This document shows positions 9,142 through 9,217 of a stretch of 37,725 nucleotides of DNA, piece after piece. The stretch lies in IMG/VR virus record IMGVR_UViG_2721755725_000007; one strand, 5' to 3'. Origin of the DNA: a virus. Its lineage: Duplodnaviria > Heunggongvirae > Uroviricota > Caudoviricetes. The notes under the pieces are model-generated. The model made no database searches and was not told the origin of the DNA. It worked only from the letters and a program-made list of their open reading frames with translations. The translations under genes were made by a program, and so were the position numbers. How positions within the stretch are numbered: the stretch's first letter is position 1; each line of letters starts with the position of its first letter.

Positions 9142-9217
9142 GGCCCTTTAGCTCAGTGGTGAGAGCGAGCGACGCATAATCGCCAGGTCGCTGGTTCGAA
9201 TCCAGTACAACGCGCCA
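9142..9217 (+). tRNA. tRNA-like sequence, ileX/ileZ-type (anticodon loop CGCATAA, anticodon CAU), probably degenerate
   Basis: 5' half GGCCCTTTAGCTCAGTGGTGAGAGC and T-arm GCTGGTTCGAATCCAGT closely resemble E. coli tRNA-Ile2 (ileX) as recalled, and it ends in G-CCA; but the 3' acceptor strand ACAACGC cannot pair with the 5' strand GGCCCTT and position 33 is G. Confidence 0.45.

Follow-up and report, generated by a model that had tools for sequence, protein, structure and literature searches.

Positions 9142-9217 of the DNA analysed here, a viral sequence of 37,725 nt referred to throughout as the window, read GGCCCTTTAGCTCAGTGGTGAGAGCGAGCGACGCATAATCGCCAGGTCGCTGGTTCGAATCCAGTACAACGCGCCA. They have the outline of an isoleucine tRNA gene with a CAU anticodon, but the two strands that should form its acceptor stem do not match. 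This locus raises the question of whether it encodes a working tRNA, an RNA with some other role or the remains of a gene, and of where its mismatched 3′ end came from. A sequence-only reading had put forward three possibilities: a decaying phage tRNA; a recombination hybrid, perhaps one arising at an integration point; or a gene that tRNA finders would miss or mis-score.

The tRNA-like core and its acceptor strands

The sequence-only reading had described a CAU anticodon in the loop CGCATAA, tRNA-like D, anticodon and T arms and a G-CCA end, and all of these are present. The three arms are intact and have the conserved loop residues of canonical tRNAs, the CAT triplet lies at 9175-9177 and the G-CCA terminus occupies 9214-9217; the T stem contains a G-U pair at 49:65. 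The two departures from a canonical tRNA that the reading had pointed out were also found. The 5′ acceptor strand, GGCCCTT, and the 3′ acceptor strand, ACAACGC, form two of the seven pairs of an acceptor stem (1:72, G-C, and 7:66, T-A), and position 33 is G (window 9174), where ileZ, the tRNA-Ile gene of Shiga toxin (Stx) phages, has T. U33 is near-universal in tRNAs. Judged against tRNA-Ile2, the locus has CAU in an Ile2-type anticodon arm, which is the ileZ arm except at position 33. It shares A37, A38 and similar D and anticodon arms with E. coli tRNA-Ile2 (ileX/ileY), the lysidine-dependent AUA decoder. Unlike that tRNA, the locus has no acceptor helix, shows C/A mismatches at 4:69 and 5:68, carries G rather than A at discriminator position 73 and has lost U33.

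The tRNA resemblance of the locus is well above chance. When the whole window was searched with the Rfam tRNA model (RF00005), the interval 9148-9207 matched at 37.3 bits (E = 1.8e-4; gathering score, 29), with maximal posterior probabilities across the D, anticodon and T arms. The alignment spans model positions 7-64 only, leaving the acceptor stem (positions 1-6 and 65-71) outside. Over their full length, the intact genes of the Stx-phage cluster score 72.5 bits (ileZ), 68-70 bits (argO) and 50-55 bits (argN). The minimum-energy fold of ileZ includes a closing acceptor helix, whereas that of the locus has none and contains only a weak 3-bp pairing of GGC to the GCC of the CCA end. Relative to shuffled sequences, the folding z-scores are −4.03 for ileZ and −0.97 for the locus.

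At default settings, ARAGORN reported zero tRNAs in the whole window, and with its thresholds lowered to 95, 90 and 80% it still reported none at this locus; it calls all three cluster genes in phages 933W and Nil3 (anticodons CAT, TCG and TCT). At 70%, a 90-nt tRNA-?(His|Ser) fold appeared that has a four-base 'anticodon' and uses the upstream CGTTATT, which we judged to be nonsense. A different 5′ boundary does not restore a canonical cloverleaf: ARAGORN found none down to 80%, and the shorter interval annotated in RefSeq (9147-9217, 71 nt) folds without an acceptor helix.

That interval is annotated by RefSeq/PGAP as tRNA-Met, with no pseudogene flag, in the four records inspected (L003, L004, L005 and L028; the feature lies at 2488-2558 in L003 and at 21547-21617 in L028). 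A tRNA-Met feature lies under every match listed for the junction described below, and intact ileZ is annotated as tRNA-Ile. The tRNA-Met call indicates that at least one tRNA caller scores the element above threshold. The expectation that tRNA finders would miss or mis-score the locus was thus justified on both counts, in that the locus escapes ARAGORN, is scored by Rfam for its core alone and is named tRNA-Met by PGAP. This last annotation is best regarded as a false positive that the intact core produces. The label inflates tRNA counts and could mislead work on phage-borne tRNAs or on codon supply for Shiga toxin and late genes.

RNase P, aminoacyl-tRNA synthetases, TilS and EF-Tu need an acceptor helix (or the helix formed by the acceptor and T arms), and TilS and IleRS are reported to use the acceptor-stem pairs 4:69 and 5:68, together with A73, of tRNA-Ile2. 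Because the helix, these pairs and A73 are all lost, the RNA should be neither matured, lysidinylated nor charged. Judged by its structure, it would be unable to become a working tRNA.

Parentage of the two halves

In a search of deposited phage genomes, the region matched the Stx-phage tRNA cluster in two pieces, which lie 330-375 bp apart in the phage and are contiguous in the window. The annotated order in 933W is a putative tRNA promoter (pT), ileZ (tRNA-Ile, reading AUA), argN and argO (both tRNA-Arg), a terminator and stx2AB; Nil3 has the same three tRNA genes without stx. Alignment with Stx-phage ileZ, a check proposed by the sequence-only reading, upheld the non-pairing acceptor stem and exposed a junction between ileZ and argO. 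In the three-way alignment of the window, 933W and Nil3, identity runs from the end of the methylase gene through base 56 of ileZ, position 33 excepted. It is interrupted by a single clean gap of 174-176 bp and resumes in the argO T arm, from where it continues through the argO 3′ end and the terminator and, for Nil3, on into STnc100; the flanks are identical on both sides of the gap. Anchored at the 5′ end, bases 1-56 of the locus are identical to ileZ of 933W/Nil3 at 55 of 56 positions, U33G being the sole mismatch, in agreement with the proposed closeness to an ileZ-type tRNA-Ile2. Anchored at the 3′ end, bases 50-76 are identical at all 27 positions to the 3′ end of argO of 933W/Nil3 (tRNA-Arg, anticodon TCT/UCU). 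The parts of this hybrid and the features around it are given in the table.

Table. Features of the hybrid tRNA locus and its surroundings in the window.
Feature	Coordinates	Strand	Evidence
Antiterminator Q gene	6647..7468	+	Pfam Antiterm PF03589, E = 5e-52; RefSeq antitermination protein
DNA methyltransferase gene, directly upstream of the hybrid	8043..9101	+	Pfam N6_N4_Mtase, E = 8e-44
pT-homologous region, TTGCAG-17 nt-TATTAT	9104..9132	+	Identical to the putative pT annotated in 933W (L001 1505-1533)
ileZ-derived part: 5′ acceptor strand, D arm, anticodon arm (CAU), variable loop, 5′ half of T stem	9142..9197	+	55/56 identical to ileZ
U33 to G substitution in the anticodon loop	9174..9174	+	Base-by-base comparison with ileZ
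Crossover interval CTGGTTC, common to the ileZ and argO T arms	9191..9197	+	Flanking diagnostic bases
argO-derived part: rest of T loop, 3′ half of T stem, ACAACGC, discriminator G, CCA	9198..9217	+	27/27 identical to argO, counted from 9191
Intrinsic terminator, which follows argO in intact clusters	9232..9256	+	Terminator scan: GGCTCGCTTTTGCGGGCC, then a T run
STnc100 sRNA gene	9293..9485	+	Rfam RF02076, 144.5 bits
AgvB anti-sRNA gene, convergent with STnc100	9487..9548	-	Rfam RF02702, 96.5 bits, identical to the model consensus

Two diagnostic bases delimit the crossover. The G at 9190 is of the ileZ type (A in argO) and the G at 9198 is of the argO type (TTCGAAT, compared with TTCAAAT in ileZ), which places the crossover within the CTGGTTC that lies between them. 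The interval could reach 9205 if the parental ileZ already had a TTCGAAT loop, but the allele commonly found is TTCAAAT. The T arms of ileZ (GGTCGCTGGTTCAAATCCAG) and argO (GGTCACTGGTTCGAATCCAG) constitute an imperfect 21-nt direct repeat, GGTC[G/A]CTGGTTC[A/G]AATCCAG, and the spacing between its copies is 176 bp in 933W and 174 bp in Nil3. The deleted stretch comprises the 3′ end of ileZ, the entire argN gene and the first 50 bases of argO. In the intact genes, the ileZ 5′ strand GGCCCTT pairs with AAGGGCC and the argO 3′ strand ACAACGC pairs with GCGTTGT, so that base by base each acceptor stem has seven of seven pairs. The joining of an ileZ 5′ strand to an argO 3′ strand is a complete explanation of the non-pairing stem. 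Six nucleotides complementary to the 3′ acceptor strand, GCGTTG, occur near 9028-9033, within the methylase gene. As a pairing partner this hexamer was dismissed as a chance match because it is ~175 nt distant and is missing from the copies of the hybrid that lack the methylase.

The recombination hybrid suggested by the sequence-only reading is therefore supported as a fusion of the neighbours ileZ and argO, but not in the part that ascribed the 3′ segment to integration at an att-like site. That segment is the 3′ end of argO, which lies ~175 bp downstream in an intact cluster, and it has a single occurrence in the window. Hybrid tRNA genes that arise by unequal recombination or deletion have classical examples in the tandem tyrT genes of E. 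coli and in deletions of the phage T4 tRNA cluster. As in those cases, the end points lie in short sequences common to neighbouring genes, and the product has the head of one gene and the tail of another. Unlike the classical working hybrids, this one has parents from different isoacceptor families (Ile and Arg); its acceptor strands are consequently mismatched, and the product would be dead.

The prophage around the hybrid

Over its first 25 kb, the window matches a prophage found in E. coli O111 strains, such as 2010C-3053, with 100% identity. According to RefSeq and Pfam, the genes before the hybrid are, in order, IS1203, a truncated DUF1627 gene, ParE/ParD, DUF968, RusA, Q, a small ORF and the methyltransferase. 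On its 3′ side follow the terminator, STnc100, AgvB, a DUF1737/SASA/DUF6645 esterase-like gene, holin, lysozyme, and head and tail genes. The toxin-antitoxin pair, located in the prophage early region, consists of a RelE/ParE toxin (4236-4535, minus strand) and a ParD antitoxin (4541-4798, minus strand).

The hybrid occupies the position of the ileZ-argN-argO cluster of 933W, Nil3, PA16 and other phages, after Q (here also after the methylase) and ahead of the moron site and lysis genes. Its flanks are identical or nearly so to those in 933W and Nil3: the pT-region leader and the terminator after argO are identical, and the 5′ 56 nt (apart from position 33) and the 3′ 27 nt of the hybrid are themselves cluster sequence. 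Unlike the cluster, the hybrid locus lacks the internal 174-176 bp and carries G33, and none of the three tRNA genes survives the deletion. It also differs from 933W, in which the stx2 genes are located between the tRNA terminator and STnc100; here no stx follows the hybrid, and the terminator is followed immediately by STnc100, as in Nil3.

A consensus promoter scan of 8950-9700 returned no promoter. The annotation of pT in 933W suggests that the homologous region in the window may have promoter activity. The 933W site homologous to the terminator is annotated as a possible rho-independent terminator and aligns with the window. With both the pT region and the terminator intact, the locus may still be transcribed. 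The arrangement of a methyltransferase gene next to the tRNA genes is also found, with intact tRNAs, in phages PA16, PA51 and PA2. In 933W (L001 1490-1542), the last bases of the methyltransferase gene (TCAGAACGGATGA) are kept upstream of ileZ and no methylase is annotated there, which suggests that the 933W lineage has lost the methylase or, alternatively, that the methylase was gained with a shared 3′ end.

Convergent sRNAs have been described at the moron site, downstream of PR′ (PMC4104026), and the STnc100 and AgvB pair corresponds to them. AsxR also matches in the AgvB region, below threshold (43 bits; gathering score, 63). RefSeq annotates a partial 'hypothetical protein' pseudogene on the minus strand at 9312-9455, entirely inside the STnc100 gene, and this CDS call is probably spurious.

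Several features mark the state of the prophage. IS1203 (IS3 family; 1-1214, with an ALIL frameshift pseudoknot at 282-398) abuts the truncated DUF1627 gene (1254-1814); the left arm of the prophage is lost at this element, and the window is without an integrase or early region. Frameshifted or partial late genes include that of a hypothetical protein between holin and lysozyme (12587-13097), tail assembly protein T (24071-24373) and minor tail protein L (27394-28091). The IS1203 cut and these damaged late genes indicate a decaying, defective cryptic prophage. The idea of a decaying phage tRNA is thus borne out, with a deletion and a further inactivating change, U33G, in a defective prophage.

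In the intact genes of the prophage, AGA, AGG, ATA and CGA are used 13.9, 19.3, 9.4 and 9.4 times per 1000 codons, respectively, which is several times their frequency in E. coli core genes; they are concentrated in the tail genes. The tail genes at 21814-35452 are rich in AGA, AGG and CGG, with 19 AGA and 40 AGG among the 881 codons of the tape measure gene and 34 of each among the 1158 codons of a J-like gene. These are the codons served by the deleted argO and argN. Such heavy use of codons read by the lost tRNAs suggests that the cluster was useful to the live phage.

Distribution and origin of the allele

Complete E. coli genomes were searched with a 76-nt query spanning G33 and the junction (coverage of at least 80%), and the junction was found in 162 of 5,426 genomes, at 186 chromosomal positions. 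Represented among them are O157:H7 (EC4115, TW14359, SS17 and many others), O111:H-/H8, O121:H19 and O145:H28. Identity to the query is at least 99% in 161 of the 162, which implies that G33 would be present in nearly all of them; the copy in the one other genome is at 95-99%. Approximately 950 further E. coli genomes match only the argO half of the query. A junction pattern that permitted any base at position 33 occurred in 22 IMG/VR contigs and 2 metagenome contigs. In each of the 27 other copies read at single-base level, G33 is present and the crossover interval is unchanged. The junction had no match among the GTDB species representatives, a set with one genome per species that is uninformative on other species.

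The linkage of G33 to the deletion was examined with the two missing combinations. For a synthetic query of intact ileZ with G33, the best match across the 5,426 E. coli genomes, at 98.8% identity, was the U33 form, and IMG/VR contained no exact match; a hybrid with U33 was not found in IMG/VR or the metagenomes. The negative results with the synthetic query indicate that G33 is exclusive to the hybrid. The surroundings are more varied, with at least three types of upstream flank (one with the methylase and two beginning with a terminator instead) and two types of downstream flank, in at least four combinations in all. One sub-variant of the hybrid (L009 and L018) carries A in place of G18 in the D loop (GTGGTG to GTAGTG); G18 is conserved universally in tRNAs, and such a second hit is what drift of a dead gene would be expected to produce. 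The shared G33 makes recurrent deletion unlikely. [quoted passage not shown] Of the 5,426 E. coli genomes, 2,610 carry intact ileZ-argN, a single genome having as many as 12 matching places, and hybrid-bearing strains such as PV15-279 and RM9322 belong to this set. With intact copies elsewhere in the genome, loss of the cluster would be buffered.

These observations make it very probable that 9142-9217 is a dead ileZ::argO hybrid tRNA pseudogene, formed by deletion in a decaying lambdoid prophage, and that the allele had a single origin and spread among STEC. The ancestor would have been a lambdoid prophage with ileZ (tRNA-Ile2, CAU), argN (tRNA-Arg, UCG) and argO (tRNA-Arg, UCU), flanked as in Nil3. 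Short-homology recombination or replication slippage between the T-arm repeats, with the crossover inside CTGGTTC, is the presumed route of the deletion. The product would have combined two non-complementary acceptor strands and could form no acceptor helix, and U33G is linked to the deletion in every copy read. The allele probably arose once and would have spread by descent and by recombination between resident lambdoid prophages in STEC lineages. The lesion may persist because the prophage was already defective and because many STEC genomes hold intact clusters on other prophages.

Other accounts of the locus were weighed against this one. That it encodes a functional, if unusual, tRNA (tRNA-Met or tRNA-Ile2, perhaps with a shifted or shortened acceptor stem) would agree with the unflagged 71-nt tRNA-Met annotation, with the intact D, anticodon and T arms and with an Rfam score above the gathering score. 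We regard it as highly improbable, given an acceptor stem with two of seven pairs, an Rfam match that omits model positions 1-6 and 65-71, negative ARAGORN results even at 80% thresholds, the fold of 9147-9217 without an acceptor helix, G33 in place of U33 and a deletion origin that is directly visible in the alignment. Because tRNA 3′ ends are common integration targets, the 3′ part could also be imagined as an att-type remnant, in which site-specific integration duplicated or replaced a tRNA 3′ end; att-site fragments, like the hybrid, join a tRNA 3′ end to foreign sequence in a prophage-rich genome. The 3′ segment, however, belongs to the neighbouring gene: 27 of its 27 positions agree with argO of this cluster, and the normal argO flank and terminator follow. 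The segment has no second copy in the window, and the locus, between Q and the lysis genes, is in the middle of the prophage and distant from its ends as well as from any integrase, which leaves this origin extremely unlikely. Collapse of the repeated T-arm sequences during assembly, to which repeats can be prone, has a practically negligible chance of being the cause, as the repeat measures merely ~21 nt and the allele, with its linked G33, recurs in 162 independent complete genomes and 24 further contigs.

Two further accounts concern the history and the possible use of the allele. If the T-arm repeat were a deletion hotspot, the same deletion might have arisen repeatedly, and the presence of the hybrid in several serotypes and in at least three upstream and two downstream flank types fits this. 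A repeated origin is unlikely all the same, because the 27 copies read share the crossover interval and the unrelated U33G, at least 161 of the 162 genomes are at least 99% identical over the 76-nt query and G33 was never found on an intact ileZ in the 5,426 genomes or IMG/VR; the mixed flanks are explained by the free recombination of STEC lambdoid prophages. Alternatively, a transcript starting at the pT-like region, or arriving by late read-through, and ending at the terminator might have been co-opted as a tRNA-like small RNA. Its core could serve as a decoy for a tRNA-binding enzyme, for example TilS, or could stabilise the methylase or late transcript or help in its processing, with U33G favoured by selection. 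The intact pT-like region and terminator, the sequence invariance across flank types (one variant excepted) and a site rich in regulatory sRNAs (STnc100 and AgvB) are compatible with such a role. We consider it very unlikely, since the hybrid folds no better than shuffled sequences (z = −0.97), the variant in L009 and L018 has a changed G18 as expected for drift, and the literature searched reports no such RNA. Were it true, selection on U33G would explain the invariance of the 76 nt across several STEC prophage backbones. We attribute this near-invariance to the recent single origin of the pseudogene; in principle, it could reflect selection.

As a dead gene formed by deletion, the hybrid is a case of ordinary gene decay and a new instance of a familiar process, the formation of hybrid tRNA genes by deletion between neighbours. 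Our search of the literature on ileZ/argN/argO, on hybrid or chimeric prophage tRNA genes and on the tRNA-Ile and tRNA-Arg genes of Stx phages found no description of it. The locus is an example of deletion promoted by T-arm sequences conserved between neighbouring tRNA genes, and of the decay of redundant phage tRNA clusters in cryptic prophages. Its biological interest is low and it opens no new question; its value is mainly practical, in annotation and as a recombination marker. The junction and the linked G33 form a clean single-event marker, with which recombination among lambdoid prophages of O157, O111, O121 and O145 could be traced.

In the alternative downstream flank, that of L005, L006, L012, L026 and L030, five nucleotides (CCACA) are duplicated immediately 3′ of the CCA end, the terminator is weakened (CCCTGACTCTCTTTTGCGGGCTTTTT) and 29 nt are inserted ahead of the STnc100-like region.
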